Source: a virus (Duplodnaviria; Caudoviricetes). From it: a stretch of DNA of 64,000 nucleotides. Position numbers and translations under genes: made by a program. The stretch lies in IMG/VR virus record IMGVR_UViG_3300007770_000001. One strand, written 5' to 3'. How positions within the stretch are numbered: position 1 is the stretch's first letter; every line of letters begins with the position of its first letter. The notes below the pieces were generated by a model, which searched no databases, was not told the DNA's origin, and saw nothing but the letters and a program-made list of their open reading frames with translations. Shown here one piece after another: positions 3,182 through 48,375 of this stretch.

Positions 3182-3502
3182 GTGGAAAGGAAGGCCCTAC
3201 AGGATCGGGATGCGCGCGTGGGTTCCCATGTGTTCACCGCTCTTCAAGAGATAGAGTCTGCCATCCGCATCTCTCGCGACCACACCCAAACCCGACAAGC
3301 GCGGAAGGCGCACCGGGATCTTCTTCATATCCGGGACGGCCTGAAGAGAATCTCCTCCGCATCCCCCAACTGGTCCGATCCGGACACTATTCCTGAAGAG
3401 GAATGGTCTCGGAGGGCTCGGGAGAAAAGAGAGCAACGACGGAAAGAGCTCATGGAGAAGAAGCTGAAGCAGGCGACCCAGGCGGAGGCCTCTGATGAGT
3501 AA
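3182..3502 (+). CDS. Hypothetical helical protein
   Basis: GTG at 3182 after GAGGG; stop overlaps the portal start. Confidence 0.55.
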   Translation: MERKALQDRDARVGSHVFTALQEIESAIRISRDHTQTRQARKAHRDLLHIRDGLKRISSASPNWSDPDTIPEEEWSRRAREKREQRRKELMEKKLKQATQAEASDE

Positions 3503-19079: not shown

Positions 19080-19559
19080 ATGACTCGCTCCGCTTCCAAC
19101 TTCGTCGACTTCCAGTCTCGGGCTCGTGAGTTCTCCGAAGGGGACCTCGCTGCCCCCTTCGGATATTCCGTGGACCAGGCAGGACGGGTCACCAATGTGT
19201 GGCCTGCCGTCGGGATGGTGGATGTGGAGTTCGCGACGGGGAACCGTCGTCTTCCGGCAGAGGATCTCCAGAAGTTCACTCCTGATGGAGATCCTGACCC
19301 CCCGAAGACCAACTCGGTCACCGGACCGAGTTCTACCAAGGTGGCACTCTACTGGGCTCAGCGGGATCGCAAGTATCGGATGTCTCGTCCTGAGATCATC
19401 GATGGTTGTCCCTGCTGCCCTCGCTGCCCGGACAAGCCCAAGCTCAGCCGCGCCATCTACAAAAGGTTGGACGGCGCCAGCGAGCGGCTCCTCGGTTGCA
19501 AGTCCTGTCTCTTCCTGATCAAAAGTTCTGATATCGTCAATATGGGGGGTGGGGGATGA
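19080..19559 (+). CDS. Hypothetical protein with C-terminal Zn ribbon (CPRC...CKSC); 3' end appears recoded
   Basis: Two CxxC pairs; the last codons use AAA/TCT/GAT/AAT, unlike the rest of the gene. Confidence 0.7.
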   Translation: MTRSASNFVDFQSRAREFSEGDLAAPFGYSVDQAGRVTNVWPAVGMVDVEFATGNRRLPAEDLQKFTPDGDPDPPKTNSVTGPSSTKVALYWAQRDRKYRMSRPEIIDGCPCCPRCPDKPKLSRAIYKRLDGASERLLGCKSCLFLIKSSDIVNMGGGG

Positions 19560-20389
19560 CTCCGGGCATTTATTCCATCCTCAACACCCAGAATGGGAAG
19601 AGGTACGTCGGGAGATCCAAGAATATGGAGGCCCGGTGGCGAGGCCATGAACGTTCGCTGGTGGCGGGGTCTCATTGCAACAACCATCTCCAGAGGTCCT
19701 GGAACCTTTACGGATCCTCCACCTTTCAGTTTGAGATTCTTGAGGTAGTCCCGGATGCGATGACGCGGGCCCACAGGGAAGCGTTCTGGTGTGGCCACTT
19801 CGATACCCACAACCGAGACAAGGGCTACAATATCGGGGATGTCCGGACAGATGAAGGGTCGGTTTACGTTTCAGACGAAGTTCGTTTGAAACGTTCTGCA
19901 GCGCGGCTTGGGAAGACTATGTCGGCAGAGACGCGAAGGAAGATTTCGATCGCCAACAAGGGGCGAAAGAGGACATCTGAGGTTTGCGAGAGGATTCGGC
20001 AAGCACGTACCGGGACCAAGGCTTCCGAAGAAACCCGGAAGAAGATGTCCGTGTCTCGTAGGAAATGGAACCACAGCCCGGAGACAGTGGCGAAGATAGC
20101 TGACTCCAACCGAGGACAGAAGAGATCCCCTGCCATTTGCCAGGCTATGTCAGAAGCCCGAAAGGGGAGGCCTGGACGCCCTCACACCGCTGAGACCAAA
20201 GCCAAGATCTCAGAGAAACTCCAGGGGCAGAAGCGCACGCCGGAGCAGTGTGCGCGGATTTCCGTCTCGAAGCAGGGGCCTCGGAAACCGCATTCTGAGG
20301 AAACCCGGAACAAGATAGCGGCTTCTCTCAGAGCCTATTGGGCTCGGCGGAAGAGTTCCGACATCGTCAACAACCCAAGCTGCGCATAG
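19556..20389 (+). CDS. GIY-YIG homing endonuclease with NUMOD3 repeats
   Basis: GIYSILNTQNGKRYVGRS...RWRGH...FEILE...GYN; multiple NUMOD3-like units (MSAETRRKIS, SEETRKKMS, HSPETVAKIA, HTAETKAKIS, HSEETRNKIA). Confidence 0.92.
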   Translation: MTPGIYSILNTQNGKRYVGRSKNMEARWRGHERSLVAGSHCNNHLQRSWNLYGSSTFQFEILEVVPDAMTRAHREAFWCGHFDTHNRDKGYNIGDVRTDEGSVYVSDEVRLKRSAARLGKTMSAETRRKISIANKGRKRTSEVCERIRQARTGTKASEETRKKMSVSRRKWNHSPETVAKIADSNRGQKRSPAICQAMSEARKGRPGRPHTAETKAKISEKLQGQKRTPEQCARISVSKQGPRKPHSEETRNKIAASLRAYWARRKSSDIVNNPSCA

Positions 20390-21848: not shown

Positions 21849-23020
21849 TGGCACGTCAGCGCCTCTCATGGATCGAGGAAGCTCGTCGAGCTTCCGCCCA
21901 CCCCGCAACCCCCGACGAGGGTCCGGCCTCTCCCGCAGGCAACGGTGAGGACCCCACCGCCGACGCCTACGAGAACGGCGACACCTCCTCGTGGGCCTCT
22001 GACCCGCACCCGCACCCCGGCCCCTACCCGGACAGCGCCCACCCCGCCACGCCCGACGAGGGCTCGGACCACCCGGCCGGCAAGTCCGCCTCCGACGAGA
22101 TCTCTCCCGAGACGAACCGTCGCGCCTCCCAGTGCGTCCGCATCGCGACCGCCATGCTCGGCGAGCCCGACAGCCCCGCCAAGGTCGCCGCCATCGAGGC
22201 GCAGGCCATCGAGCTGATGCACCTCCCCGACGCTTCCATCACCGCCAGCCTCAAGCGGCTCGGTCTGGACGGCGACGGTGAGGACGACACCGACAAGGAA
22301 GCCTCTTCCAAGATCTCCAAGAACACCGACCGGATCGCCCGGCTCGAGCGCGTTCTGATCCGCCTCGCCGACGACGACCTGGACGAGGAGGCCGCCACCA
22401 AGAAGGCTTCGGCTGAGCTGGAGACCCGCGTGGCGCGGCTCGAGCGCATCCTCGTCAAGCTGGCTGAGGAAGACGAGGATGACGACGGCGACCGGATCGC
22501 CCGGCTCGAGCGCGTTCTGATCCGCCTCGCCGAGGAGGAGGAGGAAGAGGACCCCGCCCCGAAGGCTGCCGCCACGGACAAGAAGGCCGACGACCTGCTC
22601 CTCGAGGAGATGCTCCGCGAAGAGGGGATGCTGGACAAGAAGGCCGACGACCTGCTCCTCGAGGAGATGCTCCGCGAAGAGGGGATGCTGGACGAGCCCT
22701 GCGGCATGGGTGAGCCCTCCATGGACGAGCCCTCCGGCGACACCGAGCTCGAGATCGATCTCGCTGAGGAGGATCCCATGACCATCCTCGCCGACGACGA
22801 CCTGGACGAGGAGGCCGCCACCGTGCTCGCCTCCCTGTACAGCGAGACCCCCGGCGCGAACCGCGAGGCCGCCACCGAGCCCGAGCGCCGGCCGCAGCCC
22901 AAGAAGGCGAGCACCGGTGCCTCCAGCCTCGGCAACGTCCGGACGGCGTCCAACGACTCCGACGTGGCTCAGCTCGAGAACCTGTGGAAGTCGGCTCCCG
23001 ACGTCTCCGCGCTCATCTGA
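21848..23020 (+). CDS. Capsid scaffolding protein
   Basis: TAATG coupling at 21846-21850; very acidic with coiled-coil repeats; amphipathic C-terminal tail DVAQLENLWKSAPDVSALI; lies between protease and capsid genes. Confidence 0.75.
   Translation: MARQRLSWIEEARRASAHPATPDEGPASPAGNGEDPTADAYENGDTSSWASDPHPHPGPYPDSAHPATPDEGSDHPAGKSASDEISPETNRRASQCVRIATAMLGEPDSPAKVAAIEAQAIELMHLPDASITASLKRLGLDGDGEDDTDKEASSKISKNTDRIARLERVLIRLADDDLDEEAATKKASAELETRVARLERILVKLAEEDEDDDGDRIARLERVLIRLAEEEEEEDPAPKAAATDKKADDLLLEEMLREEGMLDKKADDLLLEEMLREEGMLDEPCGMGEPSMDEPSGDTELEIDLAEEDPMTILADDDLDEEAATVLASLYSETPGANREAATEPERRPQPKKASTGASSLGNVRTASNDSDVAQLENLWKSAPDVSALI
22328..22533 (+). repeat. 44-bp direct repeat (DRIARLERVLIRLA) at 22328-22371 and 22490-22533
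   Basis: Identical nucleotide copies; a diverged third unit (TRVARLERILVKLA) lies between them. Confidence 0.85.
22576..22693 (+). repeat. 57-bp tandem duplication (DKKADDLLLEEMLREEGML x2)
   Basis: Identical units starting at 22576 and 22633. Confidence 0.9.
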
Positions 23021-33933: not shown

Positions 33934-36222
33934 ATGTCAATCGCCTTCGAGCAGCTTCGGATGGCCACCAACCCTGGCGTCGAGGACGACGGTTCCGGGG
34001 GAATGCAGGTCAAGATCGGTTTCGGTATGACGCGAGACGCCGACGGCGTCAAGCTCGCTCCGAACAACGACACCTTCAAGACCCCGGTCCGCGTCAAGGC
34101 GCAGGGGAACATCAACCTGACCGGCGGCTCTTCCCCGGACGCGGTTGATGGCGTTACCCTGTCGGTCGGTGACCGGATCTTGGTTCCCGCCCAGTCCACC
34201 GCCAGCCAGGACGGCCTCTACGAGATGACGGTCGACGGTGGCGGCACTGACGACAACACCTGGGCCCGGACCAAGGACGCTCCCACCGGCGCTGAGGCAG
34301 CTGGCTGGTACGTGCAGGTCCTCGAGGGCTCCACCGATGTCGACAAGCTCTTCCGCGTGGATGCGGACCAGGGCGGCGCGACGGTCGGAACCGATGGCTG
34401 GACGGTCGTCGAGGTCGGCGGCGCGACCTCCGACACCCTCGCTGGGGATGGCCTGGTCGCCAACGGAGCGGCTCTCGATGTCAACGTCGACGACTCCTCC
34501 ATCGAGACCAACGCTGACGTGGTCCGGGTCAAGGCGCTCGGTATCACCAACGCCATGCTGGCCGGCTCCATCGCCAACGCCAAGCTCTCCAACTCCAGCG
34601 TCACCGTCACGGCGGGCGACGGTCTGAAGACGGGCGGCTCGGTGGCTCTGGGTGCCGCGGTCACCCTCGACGTCGACGTCTCTGACTTCGCGGGAACCGG
34701 TCTGGAGGATGACGGCTCGGAGAACCTCCGTCTCGCCGCGCAGGGCAACGGTATCGCAGGCGGCGCGGGGTCGACCCTGAGCGTGGACCTCGATGGTGCG
34801 ACTCTCGCAGTGGGCGTCTCGGGCGTCAAGGTGGCTGACGGTGGTGTCACCGAGACTCAGCTCAACACCTCCGTGGCTGGCAACGGTCTCACGGGCGGTG
34901 GTGGCACGGTCCTCGCGGTTGGCGCCGGAACGGGCATCGTGGCGAACGCCAACGATGTCGCGGTTGACGTCGGCTCCGAAGTCACCTTCAACTCCAGCGC
35001 CGACTGGACCTTCCCGAACGGCGTCACTGCCAAGGGTCTGTTCGTCACCGGCACCATGATCGACGCCAACCACGTCGCCAACAAGGCGTATGTGGATGCC
35101 GCTGCCTCCGGGCTCAAGTGGCTGGCCCCGGCTGTCGTCCTGGACTACCAGGGCACCCGGACCGTGGCTCAGATCGACGCCCTCTCCCCCTTGGCGGGCT
35201 GGGCGGTCGTGGCCGGTGACGCAGGAACCCCCTCGGCGGGCTCCTCGGATCTCCTGGCGGCCGGCGACATCGCTGAGTACAACGGCACCGACTGGAAGAA
35301 GATCGTCTCCCACAGCGGCGGTTTCGTGCCCTCCGGCACTCGCTGCATCGTCTCGGCCGGCGCTCTCTTCGCCCCCCTCTCCGACGGGACCGACGAGAAC
35401 AAGCTCGCCGACTTCGACGGAACCAGCAACACCCCGACGCTCACCGCGCCGGCAGAGGGCAACGCGGCGCTGATCACCGGCGAGGCCTCGTACTACGAGA
35501 ACCTCGGCTACACCTACGACAACACCGCGTGGGTCCAGTTCACCGGTGCCGGCCAGATCAACGCGGGTGCGGGTCTGACCAAGTCGGGCCAGACCTTCGA
35601 TGTCGGAGCCGGCAACGGTATCACCGTCCTCGCCGATACCGTCGGTGTGGACGCTGACTCCACCACTGGCGGCAACATCCAGCCGGTCAACGTGGTCGCG
35701 AACGGTGTCGGTGTCGACATCAACGCCATCGCGGGCACGGGCCTCGAGGCCGACGGCTCCGCCAACCTCCGACTCGCCGCGCAGGGCAACGGTATCGCCG
35801 GTGGTGCGGGCTCCACGCTCAGTGTGAACCTCGACGGAACCACGCTGTCCGTCAGTGCCTCTGGTGTCAAGGTCAACAAGATCACCGATACCGAGTTCAA
35901 CGCGAACGTCCTCTCCCTGGACCGCCTGAACATCCGGTTCCGCGAGGAGACCCACGCGGCGGGCACCTTCACCAACGCCAACCCCTCCACGAAGGACCTG
36001 GCGGTGGCTGCCCTCATCGGCACCAACGAGGACAACTACAACGAGGTGTACCGCAACGGTATCGCGGACATGGCCAACCAGGGCAACGGCGGCTCGCCTT
36101 CCGGCGCCACCCAGTACAAGATCGACAACACGGGAGCGGGCTCGATCGGTCGGGTGACAATCGGAGCGAACATCTTCGCCTCCGGCCACACCTACCGGGT
36201 CAAGTACCTCAGCGTCACCTGA
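33934..36222 (+). CDS. Tail fibre-like structural protein
   Basis: AGxGL fibre repeats, ANKAYVD motif, about 53-aa internal repeat (34675 and 35716), high-expression codon bias. Confidence 0.75.
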   Translation: MSIAFEQLRMATNPGVEDDGSGGMQVKIGFGMTRDADGVKLAPNNDTFKTPVRVKAQGNINLTGGSSPDAVDGVTLSVGDRILVPAQSTASQDGLYEMTVDGGGTDDNTWARTKDAPTGAEAAGWYVQVLEGSTDVDKLFRVDADQGGATVGTDGWTVVEVGGATSDTLAGDGLVANGAALDVNVDDSSIETNADVVRVKALGITNAMLAGSIANAKLSNSSVTVTAGDGLKTGGSVALGAAVTLDVDVSDFAGTGLEDDGSENLRLAAQGNGIAGGAGSTLSVDLDGATLAVGVSGVKVADGGVTETQLNTSVAGNGLTGGGGTVLAVGAGTGIVANANDVAVDVGSEVTFNSSADWTFPNGVTAKGLFVTGTMIDANHVANKAYVDAAASGLKWLAPAVVLDYQGTRTVAQIDALSPLAGWAVVAGDAGTPSAGSSDLLAAGDIAEYNGTDWKKIVSHSGGFVPSGTRCIVSAGALFAPLSDGTDENKLADFDGTSNTPTLTAPAEGNAALITGEASYYENLGYTYDNTAWVQFTGAGQINAGAGLTKSGQTFDVGAGNGITVLADTVGVDADSTTGGNIQPVNVVANGVGVDINAIAGTGLEADGSANLRLAAQGNGIAGGAGSTLSVNLDGTTLSVSASGVKVNKITDTEFNANVLSLDRLNIRFREETHAAGTFTNANPSTKDLAVAALIGTNEDNYNEVYRNGIADMANQGNGGSPSGATQYKIDNTGAGSIGRVTIGANIFASGHTYRVKYLSVT

Positions 36223-42689: not shown

Positions 42690-43733
42690 GTGAGTGAATA
42701 CATTGTGAACACCAAGATCCGCGTCGGCGGTCAGGACCCTCTCGTAGAGCTCTACAAGGGGGAAGTCGTCCGGTTCCAAGGGAGCATGATCACCCGGGAG
42801 AACGGCGACGAGATCCGGCTCACCAACCCAGGGAGTATCCGACAGGCCATCAAGCTGGGGTGGATGGGTCTCGCCAGCCAAGGCCAGGGTGAGTACCGTT
42901 CCCGTCCCGCCCCCATCCAGGTCCACTCCCCCGAGTCGAGGGGGCGGGACCGGACCTCGATCAAGATGAACACCGCCCACGAGGAAGAGACGGAGGTCGG
43001 AACCGTAGAGAGCGTCCGCCCCGACAACGCCCCCCGGACTCACCAGGCCAAGAACGCGGGCCAGTACACTGTTGTCGAGGAGCAGGAAGGCCAGGTGGTC
43101 GGCCGGTTCAAGTCCTCGGCCAAGGCCGGTACTGTCGAGGTGGGCAAGAACGATCAGCAGATCAAGCGTCAGCTGGACAACAACCCCCGACGGGGTGTGG
43201 AGCGCGTCGCCCCTCGGATCTCTCAGCCGGACAATCCCCGAGAGGGCGTCACAGTCACTGGAGGAAGCTCCATTGGAGGAGAGGAGACCGGACGTGTGGT
43301 CGGCCGTGTTTCCCGCGAGGAGCGGACTCCCGCCCCCCAGGTAGGCCCTGCCCCTACCCCCCGCCCTGCAGCTTCTCGGAAGGGACGTCGCAGTCTCCCG
43401 AAGGACGCCACTGCGGCTCTCCGTGAGTGGGTGTTCGAAGGGGAGACCTGGGATGGTCAGCCGATGGACATGAAGTCGGTTCGCACTCTCCTGGGCAAGC
43501 ACTTCCGCACCCTGGACACCAACACGATGGTGTCTCGTGCAGAGGCGGCAGCCTCCGAGCCTGCAGCCCCCCAGGACGAGCCTGTCTGGAACCTCTCCCT
43601 CCACTGGAAGACGCGTGAGTCCCGGGTACGCCACCACGCGGAGAACGAAGAGGTCCTCCAGTGGATCCTGGACAACGACTCGAGCAACGCCGTCAAGAAG
43701 AAGGCGCGTCGGTTCCTTGAGGATCTCCTGTAG
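42690..43733 (+). CDS. Hypothetical protein
   Basis: AAGGAG RBS, typical codon usage. Confidence 0.7.
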   Translation: MSEYIVNTKIRVGGQDPLVELYKGEVVRFQGSMITRENGDEIRLTNPGSIRQAIKLGWMGLASQGQGEYRSRPAPIQVHSPESRGRDRTSIKMNTAHEEETEVGTVESVRPDNAPRTHQAKNAGQYTVVEEQEGQVVGRFKSSAKAGTVEVGKNDQQIKRQLDNNPRRGVERVAPRISQPDNPREGVTVTGGSSIGGEETGRVVGRVSREERTPAPQVGPAPTPRPAASRKGRRSLPKDATAALREWVFEGETWDGQPMDMKSVRTLLGKHFRTLDTNTMVSRAEAAASEPAAPQDEPVWNLSLHWKTRESRVRHHAENEEVLQWILDNDSSNAVKKKARRFLEDLL

Positions 43734-43778
43734 GTCCGGTATCTTCGCTATTCACAGCGAACCCTGCTGGAGCTCTAC

Positions 43779-44414
43779 ATGAAAATCCTCAAGGAAAGGT
43801 TCCGGAGCTTCTCCGACCAGGTTCGGATGCTCCTGGGTCTGGTCTACGAAGATAGCTTCCCCACGCCCAAGAAGGGGGAGGTCTTCATCCGGGTCGAGGA
43901 CGCCGACACCGGCGAGCTCATCGAAGAGCGTCACATCAAGAATGTGATCACCCTCGATGCAGGCCTCTTGGCCTCTACGTTGATGCTTGCGCCGACCTCT
44001 CGGAACGGCATCAACATGTTGGCCGTAGGGACCGGCGCCACTGGAGCCGTCCTGTCTCCGGACGCTCCGGACCCCAAGCAGAGGAAGCTCAACGCGGAGA
44101 TCGCTCGGAAGACGTTTTCCTCGACTACCTATCGTGACGCCAGCGGGAACGCGGTTTCGATCCGGACCGACATCCTCGACATGACCACGACCTTCGAAGC
44201 GGGAGAGGCGGTTGGTCCGCTCAACGAGATGGGTCTCATGTCCACCATCTCGGACAACACGGGTGTCCAGAACCTGAATCCCGACACGTACCCGACTCGG
44301 GACGTCACGGTGGATGTGGATGACTACGACATCCTCGTGAACTATCTGACGTTTGGCGTGATTTCTATCCCGGCGACCGCCAGATGGAGCCTTACCTGGA
44401 GAATAACCTTCTGA
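43779..44414 (+). CDS. Tail collar/baseplate-associated protein; 3' end recoded
   Basis: LAVGTG...LNAEIARK...TTTFEAGEAVGPLNEMGL...TWRITF resembles tail-collar fibre N-terminal-like proteins; CTAT element 31 nt upstream. Confidence 0.6.
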   Translation: MKILKERFRSFSDQVRMLLGLVYEDSFPTPKKGEVFIRVEDADTGELIEERHIKNVITLDAGLLASTLMLAPTSRNGINMLAVGTGATGAVLSPDAPDPKQRKLNAEIARKTFSSTTYRDASGNAVSIRTDILDMTTTFEAGEAVGPLNEMGLMSTISDNTGVQNLNPDTYPTRDVTVDVDDYDILVNYLTFGVISIPATARWSLTWRITF

Positions 44415-44494
44415 TTTCAGTGGGTTACAGGCCAAGGTAGTTTACCGGGATATCATAGATAGCGGCCTACACCGACTCAGGGTATCCTGGTTGT

Positions 44495-45640
44495 ATGCCT
44501 CTTCAGTGTCCTGTGTGCTCTCGGAACGGGTTCAAACGACTCACGCGCCACTTGAAACAGGCCCATTCTCTTTCGAAGCCTGAGGCCCTTGCGCGCTATC
44601 CGGGGCTGGTCTTCGAGGAACCCCTTCCTTCTCGGGAGATTCCCTGCTCAAGCTGCGGGGAGATCGTTCCTGGGGTTTCCCCGCGTGCGACCTACGTCAA
44701 GTGCGAGAAGTGTCGAGTCCCCCCATACACAGGACCCCAGGTATCCTGCGCACTATGTGGAATCTCCCGAAGGAGTCTTCGGAACCACCTCAGGGCGTCT
44801 CATGAGTTGACACCGGACCAGTATCGTGCCAAGTATCCAGGAGAACCCGTAGAGGTTCCTGGGATCCGAAAGAAGTCTCCAGAGACCCGCACCAAGATGT
44901 CTGCCGGAGCTACTCGTCGGTGGTCCGACCCTGAGAAGAGAGCAGAGCAATCCGCTAAGCTGAAGCAGGTAGCTCCCTGGAAGGGGAAGAAGCTATCTCC
45001 AGAGCATAGGGAAGCCATATCCAAGGCTGTCACAGGGTGCGACTACAACCTATCGGAAGAGGGGCGTAGGATCCGAGCAGAGTGTGGTCGGCGTGCTCTT
45101 GAGAAGATTCGCCAGAGACCTGGATATTGGGAGCGCGTTCGGAAAGGCCAGAAGGAGTCTCGTGCAAGAAGAGCTCGGGAGGGAACTCTCTATTTCCCAA
45201 ACGGAAGAGGGATATCCGGGATCCGGAAGGATGTTGGACACTTCACCAGGTCTACGTTGGAGGCCAACTTTTCCCGGGTTCTCCTCCTCAACAAGATCCC
45301 CTACCAATATGAGCCGAAGTGCTTTAATCTGCAGATAGGGGGGAACACGGTCCTCTATCTCCCAGACTTCTACCTTGAGGAACCTTTGTCCCACGACGGG
45401 CGAGTTCTTGTCCCTGCAGGTTGGGTTGAACTGAAAGGTTGGAGACCTAAACCGAGCGATATCCCTTGGATTGCTCAGGAGAAGATAGACGCCCTGTCCC
45501 TTCTGGTAGGGTCTTCAGTAGCCCTGGTGGTCCAATCCGAGCCCTCCTGGACAGATATCCGAGACATTTGGAGACCGCAGATACCCTTGTGGGAGACGGG
45601 ACGTAGGAATCTGCGGACGAACCCTCAGATGTTTCGTTGA
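44495..45640 (+). CDS. Homing endonuclease: MucR/Ros-like Zn fingers + NUMOD3 + PD-(D/E)XK nuclease
   Basis: CPVC...HLKQAH and CALC...HLRASHELTPDQYRAKYP fingers; KSPETRTKMS and LSPEHREAIS units; RSTLEANF...YQYEP...YLPDFYL...WVELKGW nuclease motif. Confidence 0.8.
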   Translation: MPLQCPVCSRNGFKRLTRHLKQAHSLSKPEALARYPGLVFEEPLPSREIPCSSCGEIVPGVSPRATYVKCEKCRVPPYTGPQVSCALCGISRRSLRNHLRASHELTPDQYRAKYPGEPVEVPGIRKKSPETRTKMSAGATRRWSDPEKRAEQSAKLKQVAPWKGKKLSPEHREAISKAVTGCDYNLSEEGRRIRAECGRRALEKIRQRPGYWERVRKGQKESRARRAREGTLYFPNGRGISGIRKDVGHFTRSTLEANFSRVLLLNKIPYQYEPKCFNLQIGGNTVLYLPDFYLEEPLSHDGRVLVPAGWVELKGWRPKPSDIPWIAQEKIDALSLLVGSSVALVVQSEPSWTDIRDIWRPQIPLWETGRRNLRTNPQMFR

Positions 45641-45720
45641 TCTTGATGGAGTCTGACTTGGCGGATCACCTTCTAACAGGCGTGTCCCGCCGGTAAAGTC
45701 TCCCGTTGGCGGGAGACCCT

Positions 45721-46782
45721 ATGAGAACGCTCACGATACGAGCGCCGGACGACATGCATCTCCACCTACGGCAAGGGGAGATGCTTCCCGATCTGGTGTC
45801 CTATTCGGCGATGCACTGGTCTCGCGGCATCGTGATGCCCAACACCAAGCCCCCAGTGCTAACGCACTGGGATGCCGCCGGCTATTGTGCGAAAATCATG
45901 GAGGCCGGCACGGGCTTCCAGCCCCTCATGACCCTCTACATGACGGATGGGACCACTCCTCAGATCATCGAGGACGCGGCGGAGTCTGGATTCATCTACG
46001 GGGTCAAGCTCTATCCCCACGGAGCCACAACCAACTCCGATGAGGGCGTCACCGAGATCGAGAACATCTATCCGGCCCTGGCGGTGATGGAGGAGCACGG
46101 GCTCCCTCTCCTGGTGCACGGGGAACTCACCCACGACTACATGGGTGAGGTGGACTTCTTCGACCGCGAGGAGAGATTCCTCCATGCGGTCATGCGTCCC
46201 ATCCTGGACCGCTACCCCGACCTTCGGGTGGTCCTCGAACACATCACGACCCGAGCAGCCACCTCTTGGATTCGGATGGTGCAACCCGAACTCCCGGAAG
46301 ATGTCAAACCCGGAGTACCTCAGATCGCTGCAACGATCACGGCCCATCATCTCCTGGAGAACCGGAACGCTCTCTTTCGGGAGGGGGCCAACACCCACAA
46401 CTTCTGCCTTCCCGTCCTGAAGCGCGAAGTCGATCGACAGGCCCTGGTGTCGGCGGCAACCTCCCGGGAGCCCTGGTTTTTCGCGGGGACTGACTCTGCC
46501 CCCCACACTGTCTACGCCAAGCACAACCACGGTTGTGCCGGGTGCTACACAGCCCCCCATGCGCTCCAGCTCTATGCTGAGGTCTTTGATCAGGTGGGTC
46601 TCCTCGAGAGACTGGAGGACTTCACCTCTCGATTCGGGGCGGAGTACTATGGACTCCCTCTCAACCCCCACAGCATCACCCTCAAGGAGGAACCCTATGT
46701 GGTCCCCCTACACCACATGATCGGGAACAAGCCTGTGGTGCCCTTCTGGGCGGGTCGGAGGTTGGCGTGGTCCGTAGCCTGA
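45721..46782 (+). CDS. pyrC: Dihydroorotase, E. coli-type (class II)
   Basis: DDMHLHLR, MPN, VKLYP, VHGE, LEHITT, FCLPVLK and GTDSAPH motifs; GGGAG RBS before ATG 45721. Confidence 0.95.
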   Translation: MRTLTIRAPDDMHLHLRQGEMLPDLVSYSAMHWSRGIVMPNTKPPVLTHWDAAGYCAKIMEAGTGFQPLMTLYMTDGTTPQIIEDAAESGFIYGVKLYPHGATTNSDEGVTEIENIYPALAVMEEHGLPLLVHGELTHDYMGEVDFFDREERFLHAVMRPILDRYPDLRVVLEHITTRAATSWIRMVQPELPEDVKPGVPQIAATITAHHLLENRNALFREGANTHNFCLPVLKREVDRQALVSAATSREPWFFAGTDSAPHTVYAKHNHGCAGCYTAPHALQLYAEVFDQVGLLERLEDFTSRFGAEYYGLPLNPHSITLKEEPYVVPLHHMIGNKPVVPFWAGRRLAWSVA

Positions 46783-47792
46783 GCTTCCTCGACTTCATCT
46801 ATCGCTACGGGCTCAAACAAGTCCTGTTCCCTCTGGATGCTGAGAGATGTCACGAGGCCATGCTCTGGTCCGCTCGACACTTCTCCCGGTTCCTCCCGAT
46901 GACTCCTTTCCCCAAGGGCATAGAATCCAAGATCGGGGACATCGAGATTCCGGGTCCTGTGGGTCTGGCCGCAGGGATGGACAAGAACGGGGACGCCCTC
47001 CCTCTATGGGAGCGCCTTGGGTTCGGATTCATCGAGATAGGCTCAGTCCTCCTCCACCCCCAGGAAGGGAATCCGCGCCCGCGTATCAAGAGGCTCCCTG
47101 AGGAGATGCTCTGGAACTGGATGGGATTCCCCAGCGCTGGCATGGTACGGGTGAAGAGGAACTTCCGCCACTGGCAGGACTGCGGTCTCTGGCCTTCGGT
47201 TCCTGTTGGGATCAACATCGGTCTGAACAAGGAGGTCGAGGCCAAGGACGCCCCTCTCCACTATGCATCAGTGGCCAACTTCCTGTCTCAGTTCGCCGAC
47301 TACTTCGTGGTGAACCTGTCCTCCCCGAATACTCCCGGACTGCGGAGCCTCCAGCACCGGGAGAACTTCAAGAGGATCGTCGGGGCTGTCCTAAAGGCAG
47401 TTCCCCACGTCCGAGTCTTCGTGAAGCTCAGTCCTGACCTCCCTCCCCTCCCCTACATGGAAGTTCTGGAAGCCGCTGAGAGAGTCGGAGTTCACGGGAT
47501 CATCGCGACGAATACCTCGGGACACTCAGGCCTCAACCCTCGAGGGCACGGAGGGGTCTCAGGATCCTACCTGTACCACAACTCCCAGGAGAAGGTCCAG
47601 GCTGCTCTCCAGGGAACTCGACTTCCTGTGATTGCCTGTGGAGGGATCAACTCCACCTATCGAACCCAGAAGGCTCTCCTGGATGGTTGTGCTGCTGTAC
47701 AGCTTCTCACGGCCCTTGTCTTCAAAGGCCCGGCCTTCCCCCACCGGATCAACCAGGGGCTCTACAAGCTCCTACAGGACGCTCCAGAATAG
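46767..47792 (+). CDS. pyrD: Dihydroorotate dehydrogenase (quinone), class 2
   Basis: GLAAGMDKNG, IEIGSV...PQEGNPRPR, VNLSSPNTPGLR (catalytic Ser), VKLSPD, IATNT, GGVSG, CGGI, VQLLTALVFKGP. Confidence 0.95.
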   Translation: MVRSLSFLDFIYRYGLKQVLFPLDAERCHEAMLWSARHFSRFLPMTPFPKGIESKIGDIEIPGPVGLAAGMDKNGDALPLWERLGFGFIEIGSVLLHPQEGNPRPRIKRLPEEMLWNWMGFPSAGMVRVKRNFRHWQDCGLWPSVPVGINIGLNKEVEAKDAPLHYASVANFLSQFADYFVVNLSSPNTPGLRSLQHRENFKRIVGAVLKAVPHVRVFVKLSPDLPPLPYMEVLEAAERVGVHGIIATNTSGHSGLNPRGHGGVSGSYLYHNSQEKVQAALQGTRLPVIACGGINSTYRTQKALLDGCAAVQLLTALVFKGPAFPHRINQGLYKLLQDAPE

Positions 47793-48375
47793 CTCGAGCG
47801 CGGGCTACGTCTTCGTCCCGAAGTCCGTGTCGGGAGCTCACTCGGATGAACCGGGAGAAGCTCTCGGGATCTGGTTCCGGCATCCGAGCCTCCCAGCCTT
47901 CCCACGGGCCCCACTCTTCCACCCAGTTGGATGAGAACCACTCCCGGGTGTATTGACACCTCTCCTCTGAGAATGGTAGGTCTCGGTCGTCGAAGATCAC
48001 GTAGGAGAGGATCTCTCGCCCCTTCATCCAGTCGCGGATCTGTTGGGGGCGGTCTGGCCAGGTGAGGCTCTCCGGCCCCTGGTCTGTGTATCCGATGACG
48101 AGCTCGTTGGGGACTCCACACTCCTCCAGGTCTTGTATGGCAAACTGGACTTTCTCCTCCAAGGTGTATGTAGATTCCTCAAACATTTGGACAGCGTCTG
48201 ATATGATGACGACCCGAGCCCCTGTTTCGTCGCAGAGGTCCTTGATCCGGGCCCCGCACAAGGGGTCGAGCCGTTCATCCCGGTCCAGATCTCTACGGAG
48301 AGGTCCGTCCATGACCCCGTAGAAGTCCAGGAAGATGATCTTCAACGCGTCGGAATGGTCTTCCACCACAGACAC
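47749..48375 (-). CDS. HAD-like protein of the Swiss-army-knife RNA-repair type (HAD_SAK-like), with variant motif I
   Basis: IIFLDFYGVM, VVIISD, IGYT...RPQQIRDW...YVIFDD; the second Asp of DxD is Tyr. Confidence 0.65.
   Translation of the reverse strand: MSVVEDHSDALKIIFLDFYGVMDGPLRRDLDRDERLDPLCGARIKDLCDETGARVVIISDAVQMFEESTYTLEEKVQFAIQDLEECGVPNELVIGYTDQGPESLTWPDRPQQIRDWMKGREILSYVIFDDRDLPFSEERCQYTREWFSSNWVEEWGPWEGWEARMPEPDPESFSRFIRVSSRHGLRDEDVARARAILERPVGACRAPG

Follow-up and report, generated by a model that had tools for sequence, protein, structure and literature searches.

How does the end of a single phage gene come to stand twice in one genome, once in its place and once more behind an endonuclease gene? 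This question is raised by a locus in a stretch of 64,000 nucleotides (below, the window) of the virus record IMGVR_UViG_3300007770_000001 (Duplodnaviria; Caudoviricetes). The host gene of this locus, 43779..44414 on the plus strand, encodes a 211-aa protein that is conserved in huge phages. It is followed on the same strand by a free-standing homing endonuclease gene (44495..45640, 381 aa), and behind this gene the last nine codons of the host gene are found again. An earlier note on this DNA had proposed that the endonuclease gene inserted within the last codons of a structural gene and supplied a recoded replacement for them. Following up this proposal, we describe an endonuclease family that is tied to one virion gene, and make a statistical case for a sharply bounded recoded tract at the end of that gene; both are new here.

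Two copies of one gene end

The host gene terminates in frame with the peptide WSLTWRITF and the stop TGA (44385-44414, plus strand; below, the working tail, with AGA, ATA and CTT codons). The same peptide followed by TAA is encoded on the same strand at 45647-45676 (the stranded tail), six bases past the stop of the endonuclease open reading frame (ORF). Between the copies, 6/27 sense bases differ, every one of them synonymously, and with the different stops this amounts to 7/30 bases. The synonymous differences in five sense codons and the stop were present just as the earlier note had described them. By a codon-degeneracy estimate, the chance of an exact repeat of nine residues plus stop within about 2 kb is of the order of 1e-10. 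A scan of the whole window for same-strand peptide repeats of at least nine residues within 3 kb returned other cases only inside large repeat-bearing ORFs or as antisense shadows. Four marine runs, belonging to two studies, gave contigs with the identical arrangement, and it was the same in all contigs encoding the exact 211-aa protein. Therefore, the duplicated tail is real and no assembly artefact. The stranded tail belongs to no long ORF, because two in-frame stops precede it; readthrough from the endonuclease ORF into it was rejected on the same ground.

Two independent codings of WSLTWRITF would give a mean of 4.7-5.6 differences. The six that were observed are at this level, and judged by this expectation the copies appear saturated at their synonymous sites. 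The 'near-complete recoding' of the earlier note thus stands as far as the differences are concerned, but their number is that of two independent codings.

The host protein matches phrog_5417 (function unknown), and 858 hits on contigs of up to 620 kb place it in a large protein family from uncultured huge phages. Its homolog in Tunturiibacter phage Tunturi_5 (30% identical) is annotated as 'virion structural protein' and lies two genes past the portal. The C-terminus of the family is conserved as T-W-R-(I/L)-(T/S)-F-stop. The W-S-L of both window copies is unique among 120 homologs. The pattern TAR...TWRITF was considered as a motif of endonuclease-linked alleles only and was dropped, being merely the norm of a clade.

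The codon usage of the two tails was compared with that of 29 reference genes. The upstream tail deviated from these genes (P=0.0125) and the stranded tail did not (P=0.44), which agrees with the earlier description of rare codons in the one and genome-typical codons in the other. In the reference genes ATA, AGA and CTT make up 3.4%, 5.3% and 8.7% of their amino acid's codons, and in the endonuclease ORF 29%, 16% and 27%. Likewise, the log-likelihood ratio (LLR) of element versus genome usage was positive in the upstream copy (+2.3) and negative in the stranded one (-3.2). The G+C content of third codon positions (GC3) is 0.59 in the endonuclease ORF and about 0.72 in the genes of the window. 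These codon statistics support an element-like upstream tail and a stranded tail of native type. A change-point test places the beginning of element-like coding at 44343, so that it would comprise the last 23 codons (LLR 4.0 nats, P=0.036). This element-like gene end, with its stop, occupies 44343..44414 on the plus strand; its GC3 is lowered, and its upstream limit coincides with a boundary at codon -23/-24 that is found across the family (see below). The proposed recoded replacement is therefore supported, with its extent corrected from nine codons to about 23, starting at about 44343.

Seven bases are common to the two borders of the insertion. The left microhomology GATGGAG (44383..44389, plus strand) is identical to the right one at 45645..45651, by direct reading of the sequence. 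Since these seven bases are shared by both junctions, the exact crossover point is ambiguous. Beyond the stranded tail, a GC-rich hairpin of 8 bp (45698..45717, plus strand) lies just 5' of the ATG of the next gene (45721). It is present in both the minimum free energy and the centroid structures, with a z-score of only -1.5 for the region, and was not called in a generic promoter and terminator scan. It is probably the original 3' hairpin of the host gene, now located beyond the cassette. The DNA past the cassette (45721-47792) encodes a dihydroorotase-like amidohydrolase (pyrC) and then a dihydroorotate dehydrogenase (PF01180, E 6e-57); these pyrimidine-synthesis genes sit within a neighbourhood of phage virion genes.

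The endonuclease family and the respelled gene end

The N-terminal part of the endonuclease contains two C2H2 fingers of the ROS/MucR type, a zinc ribbon and a NUMOD3 helix region. It is followed by a C-terminal PD-(D/E)XK domain (residues about 238-365), in which E273, P290-D291 and E312-L-K314 are conserved in 34 homologs. In a structure model with a mean pLDDT of 89, residues 238-365 align only to restriction-endonuclease-like folds (TnsA, Z 6.6; I-Bth0305I, 5.8; Vsr, 5.5; also VRR-NUC and Hjc). A Foldseek search of the whole multidomain model against the PDB gave nothing at E 0.001 or better; the top match was I-Bth0305I and the top rows were all PD-(D/E)XK nucleases, yet with E values of at least 0.02. 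The profile of the family weakly matches the T7 endonuclease I structures 2pfj and 1m0d (E 0.009-0.05). PF05367 was absent from a Pfam scan of the window protein and present in two distant homologs, P0168 and P0169. The EDxHD motif is absent from the alignment, and the family profile gave no match to 3r3p at E up to 1. At the superfamily level, the assignment to PD-(D/E)XK holds for the predicted fold. The free-standing PD-(D/E)XK endonuclease named in the earlier note is thereby borne out by the conserved motif, the fold and the linkage of the family to the 3' end of the host gene. No paralog of the endonuclease was found within the 64-kb window.

Host and endonuclease genes are separated by a spacer (44415..44494, plus strand) with a -35-like hexamer at 44460-44465, a gap of 17 nt, a -10-like hexamer at 44483-44488 and the ATG 6 nt further on. 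This promoter-like layout is common to the long-form members of the family (L026, L027, L028, L030, L049, L050 and L051), in which the distance from the -10-like hexamer to the start is 5-6 nt, or 16-18 nt together with a Shine-Dalgarno sequence. The generic promoter and terminator scan did not call a promoter in the spacer; the conservation of the layout across loci suggests one. Short-form members lack the first ~80 residues, and their start codon overlaps the stop of the host gene (e.g. L007, L013, L019 and L032). A divergent subgroup of endonucleases (L004, L010 and L023; 33-37% identity) forms a well-supported clade of its own.

In all genomic contexts retrieved, homologs of the endonuclease (37-52% identity) directly followed a homolog of the same host gene. 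A query with the family alignment brought up ~30 distinct loci with upstream DNA in viral and metagenome contigs, and the position was the same in every one of them; a query of viral_contigs with the single protein had given no match. The insertion inside the last codons that the earlier note had proposed is to be corrected in that the family usually occupies the intergenic position immediately 3' of the stop codon. In endonuclease-free alleles (L001-L003, L006, L009, L011, L014, L018, L022, L024, L076, L077 and L079) the empty site consists of the stop, a short spacer and the next gene. L079 and L027 were considered as a matched pair of empty and filled sites, both having an 85-aa gene downstream, and were dropped, as the two genes are unrelated. 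The three nearest relatives of the host gene that were found independently of the endonuclease are all devoid of it. On the host-gene tree, presence of the endonuclease takes eight changes, at least six of them forced by well-supported branches, and it is no more clustered than shuffled labels. The endonuclease tree tracks the two main host clades, and the window copy groups with L028, L026, L027 and L049; the host genes of these four are likewise the nearest to that of the window. Exchange would therefore occur mostly among related phages. Taken from these contig comparisons, the strict linkage to the 3' end of one gene and the patchy presence fit, and support, a free-standing homing endonuclease gene.

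The GC3 of the gene end was then compared between alleles with and without the endonuclease. Across 29 distinct linked alleles, the last 12 codons fall short of the body of the same gene by 0.196 (Wilcoxon p=6e-8). In contrast, the same measure is +0.046 in 13 endonuclease-free alleles, and the two groups differ (Mann-Whitney p=1e-5). The linked host genes as a whole are not lower in GC. The drop is limited to codons -24 to -1 and is gone from -25 upstream; resolved by codon it starts at Tyr -23, which is also where it starts in the window. Sister contrasts of alleles with and without the endonuclease agree in 9/9 independent pairs (p=0.002). The endonuclease ORFs themselves have a GC3 0.135 below the gene bodies. 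Since the drop is seen in linked but not in free alleles, the recoded gene end travels with the endonuclease. Judged by the codon composition of these alleles, the respelled end of about 63-70 bp (~23 codons) is a constant companion of the enzyme.

A single position adds to this picture. The TWR arginine is encoded by CGG in 2 linked alleles against 11.4 expected, and in 7 free alleles against 2.8 expected. These counts were tested against the arginine usage of each gene, to exclude an artefact of GC content. In the window, the stranded tail has TGG CGG and the working tail TGG AGA. Thus, at the level of the family, endonuclease-free alleles favour the TGG CGG of the stranded copy, while the free allele L077 has ATA and AGA nearby. 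L077 (3098-3136) is the sole free allele with a depressed tail GC3 (0.67 versus 0.79 in the body), its AGA and ATA lying near the end; it may represent a lineage that has lost the endonuclease and retained the recoded end.

A stranded tail is kept in only 2 of ~29 linked lineages, the window and L046. The latter is a 381-kb phage contig (the same phage as L073; 381-444 kb), and its host protein and endonuclease are 45% and 40% identical to those of the window. Its host tail at 2472-2492 recurs at 3430-3450 with synonymous differences only, the stranded copy overlaps the last codons of the endonuclease in another frame, and nine bases are identical at both cassette borders. The stranded tail of L046 has GGAGG 11 nt before the ATG of the next gene, and its stop overlaps this ATG; because of this position and overlap, the remnant may have been kept as the ribosome-binding site of the next gene.

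A similar arrangement is found elsewhere in the window at an unrelated GIY-YIG/NUMOD3 gene (19556..20389). The ORF of this gene ends with KSSDIVN-NPSCA (20351-20389, G/C-ending codons), and the gene just before it (19080..19559) ends with KSSDIVN-MGGGG (19521-19559, A/T-ending codons). The two KSSDIVN copies differ synonymously in 4/21 bases. In relatives, the conserved end consists of residues like KSSDIVN, and the final few are variable. The GIY-YIG locus bears the same footprint as the cassette described here, with the amino-acid pattern that a foreign donor end would predict.

A probable homing cassette and its alternatives

We consider it probable that a mobile cassette of ~44343-45646, consisting of the recoded end of ~23 codons, the spacer and the endonuclease gene, spreads by intronless homing. 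The enzyme would cut endonuclease-free alleles in or near the conserved last ~70 bp of the host gene, and repair would copy the donor gene end along with the endonuclease. In the window, the donor would have been a related phage with lower GC3 and a downstream flank unlike that of the recipient, and a fairly close relative, because both copies share the lineage-specific W-S-L. The left side of the break would have been repaired through homology inside the gene. The right side would have lacked homology, because a non-canonical flank, with pyrC, follows the host gene here, and would have been joined illegitimately at the seven-base microhomology (44383-44389 / 45645-45651). The last nine codons of the recipient, its stop and its 3' hairpin would thereby have been stranded beyond the cassette, and the host gene would have stayed whole without splicing. 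Immunity of the carrier to its own enzyme is probably a further effect of the recoded tract. It is plausible that the recoding removes the target of the enzyme, and the depletion of CGG is a hint in this direction. Cut site, repair route and immunity are what we infer from this pattern.

It is also possible, although we lean somewhat against it, that the ~63-bp tract is a selected immunity patch. The enzyme would then have a long recognition site over the last ~23 codons of an essential virion gene, and the patch would be recoded at many places with its peptide kept, because single changes would not protect.

Several points weigh against the homing cassette. The change point of the window is only modestly significant by itself (P=0.036), and the scores of the modelled fold matches are middling (Z 5-8). 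The loci were collected partly with the endonuclease as bait. The GC3 drop could result in part from signals for endonuclease expression, such as the GGAG ribosome-binding site in short-form loci. With stranded tails in only 2 of ~29 lineages, the usual route may be ordinary two-sided homing and the window a rare accident. The shared W-S-L demands a close donor, or a crossover inside the 7-mer, in which case S and L would be the only residues that have to agree; the W codon falls within the ambiguous junction. Under strong purifying selection, saturated synonymous sites can go together with an identical tail of nine residues. Finally, no endonuclease-free allele of this phage was found, nor one of a relative closer than 65% protein identity, so that the native sequence is deduced and not observed. 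The exact stranded tail was not found in viral_contigs, and its peptide in any codon choice was found in neither viral_contigs nor genome_contigs. Six DNA sequencing runs, all as contigs, and no RNA run were listed as containing this DNA. The four marine runs among them that were compared yielded no endonuclease-free form, with one full-length contig each and no joints; since contigs drop rare variants, this result is no proof of absence.

Among the alternatives, a duplication in situ survives best, and we regard it as unlikely. The cassette would have come without a gene end, its insertion would have doubled ~30 bp of the native tail, and the working copy would then have been recoded under selection, either for escape from the enzyme or for prevention of cassette loss through the repeat. 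The lineage-specific W-S-L in both copies would follow directly from such a duplication, the depletion of CGG in linked tails would be in keeping with selection, and many changes might be needed for immunity if the enzyme tolerated most single substitutions, as I-Bth0305I does (PMC3239194). However, seven changes in the working copy and zero in the unconstrained stranded copy would make the event both old and recent. The changed codons agree with the codon usage of the endonuclease itself, and element-like coding begins ahead of the duplicated part, at codon -23, where it also begins in the family at large. At the GIY-YIG locus the ends differ in amino acids where the family varies, as a foreign donor end would. 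What makes a duplication in situ fit less well than the homing cassette is the unaltered stranded copy, together with new codons that follow the usage of the endonuclease.

Even less likely is an old resident, inherited vertically for long, whose downstream copy was kept for the next gene or for the 3' end of the transcript. The stranded tail of L046, with its GGAGG and the overlap of its stop with the ATG, would suit such a role, and so would the hairpin after the stranded tail of the window. In the window, however, the stranded tail is 45 nt upstream of the next start and no signal was detected in it, and a constraint on regulatory DNA would not keep the reading of the peptide with zero non-synonymous change. 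The GC3 of the endonuclease has not converged on that of the genome either. Long residence would further agree with a host-gene subclade of the window that, as sampled with the endonuclease, is entirely endonuclease-positive, but the nearest host-gene relatives found independently of the endonuclease are without it.

Within phage genes, endonuclease ORFs commonly reside in introns, and exon ends might lie at the two copies. Even so, a self-splicing intron or other RNA-level removal of 44385-45646, joining the gene body to the downstream tail, is highly improbable: there is no Rfam match in 43500-46200 even at E up to 1, the shared 7-mer offers no splice pair with a 5' exon ending in U and an intron ending in G, GUGYG is missing at the left border, the same endonuclease is plainly intergenic in ~27 other lineages, and splicing would alter nothing because the unspliced gene is already complete. 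With no intron signature and a complete unspliced gene, the statement that the host gene stays intact without splicing can be upheld.

Some further features of the window were recorded. Long in-frame peptide repeats with partly synonymous divergence occur at 34690-35830 and 21890-22830, among them a 14-residue repeat at a distance of 1041 nt with 8/42 different bases and several others ~141-423 nt apart. These repeats are internal to large proteins and have no connection to an endonuclease. On the minus strand, 47749-48375 encodes a protein of 208 aa. It contains HAD_SAK_2 (PF18143, E 2e-13), which is the HAD domain known from 'Swiss Army Knife' RNA repair proteins.

Known homing systems and the meaning of the cassette

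The closest parallels are the gene hybrids made by mobile ORFs (mORFs) of fungal mitochondria, as in atp6 of Allomyces macrogynus and atp6, atp9, cox2 and nad3 of Glomus, and the partial C-terminal duplications of cob and atp6 in Endoconidiophora (PMC3630166, PMC6279837). The 3'-end duplication by endonucleases in fungal mitochondria to which the earlier note referred corresponds to these hybrids. As in the window, they consist of a foreign C-terminal piece, an endonuclease ORF and the displaced native C-terminus downstream, and need no splicing; their native piece is closer to endonuclease-free relatives than the inserted piece is. The mORF enzymes are of the LAGLIDADG or GIY-YIG type, reside in organelle genomes and are often fused in frame to the host gene. 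Unlike them, the enzyme of the window is of the PD-(D/E)XK type, and in this double-stranded DNA phage of about 339 kb its gene has a promoter-like spacer and a start codon of its own. The stranded piece comprises only nine codons, and the inserted end is a constant companion of the endonuclease across ~29 alleles.

Homing of the T4 Seg/Mob type is alike in its intergenic, free-standing and patchily distributed gene, in a cut presumed to lie in a neighbouring conserved gene, in the co-conversion of the flank and in the immunity of the carrier through differences in the target. There, the enzymes are of the GIY-YIG or HNH type and co-conversion is known from crosses, whereas linkage in the window is derived from composition. 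The window further differs in the sharp border of the tract ~70 bp from the gene end and in the stranded native end, which records a one-sided event. In T4 td intron experiments (Parker, Belisle, Belfort 1999, as reviewed in PMC2988022), one-sided homing with illegitimate repair at microhomologies was demonstrated. One-sided homology and microhomology junctions, of seven bases in the window and nine in L046, are common features, but T4 td was a laboratory construct with an intron and the window is a natural event with an intronless cassette.

I-Bth0305I is a multidomain, intron-encoded homing endonuclease of a Bacillus phage from the Vsr-like 'EDxHD' branch of PD-(D/E)XK, with a footprint of about 60 bp in which most single substitutions are tolerated (PMC3239194). 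Both are phage homing enzymes with extra DNA-binding domains, and by analogy the footprint may parallel the recoded tract of ~63 bp. The window protein has the classical E...PD...ExK arrangement and no EDxHD, so that only the fold is similar. Literature searches for a replacement gene end with a stranded native end in a phage found no description.

The locus provides a natural before-and-after record of a phage homing event. What was a single curiosity becomes a rule at the level of the family: at each site occupied by this endonuclease, the adjoining gene has its last ~23 codons respelled. The rule predicts the place of binding or cutting and the bases that confer immunity (e.g. TGG CGG versus TGG AGA), and opens the specificity of this PD-(D/E)XK homing endonuclease family, as yet uncharacterised, to a direct test. 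If the tract is an immunity patch, such a 'coding patch' would join introns and inteins as a third general route by which homing endonucleases enter the ends of essential genes, one common in uncultured phages, and the window would keep part of a susceptible site beside the immune one. For annotation, short gene ends left as orphans in phages, and 3' ends of phage genes with odd codon usage, call for caution, as they can be the footprints of endonucleases. The strategy of the mitochondrial mORFs would also be at work in huge phages, where a single genome has at least two nuclease families, unrelated to each other, that use it.

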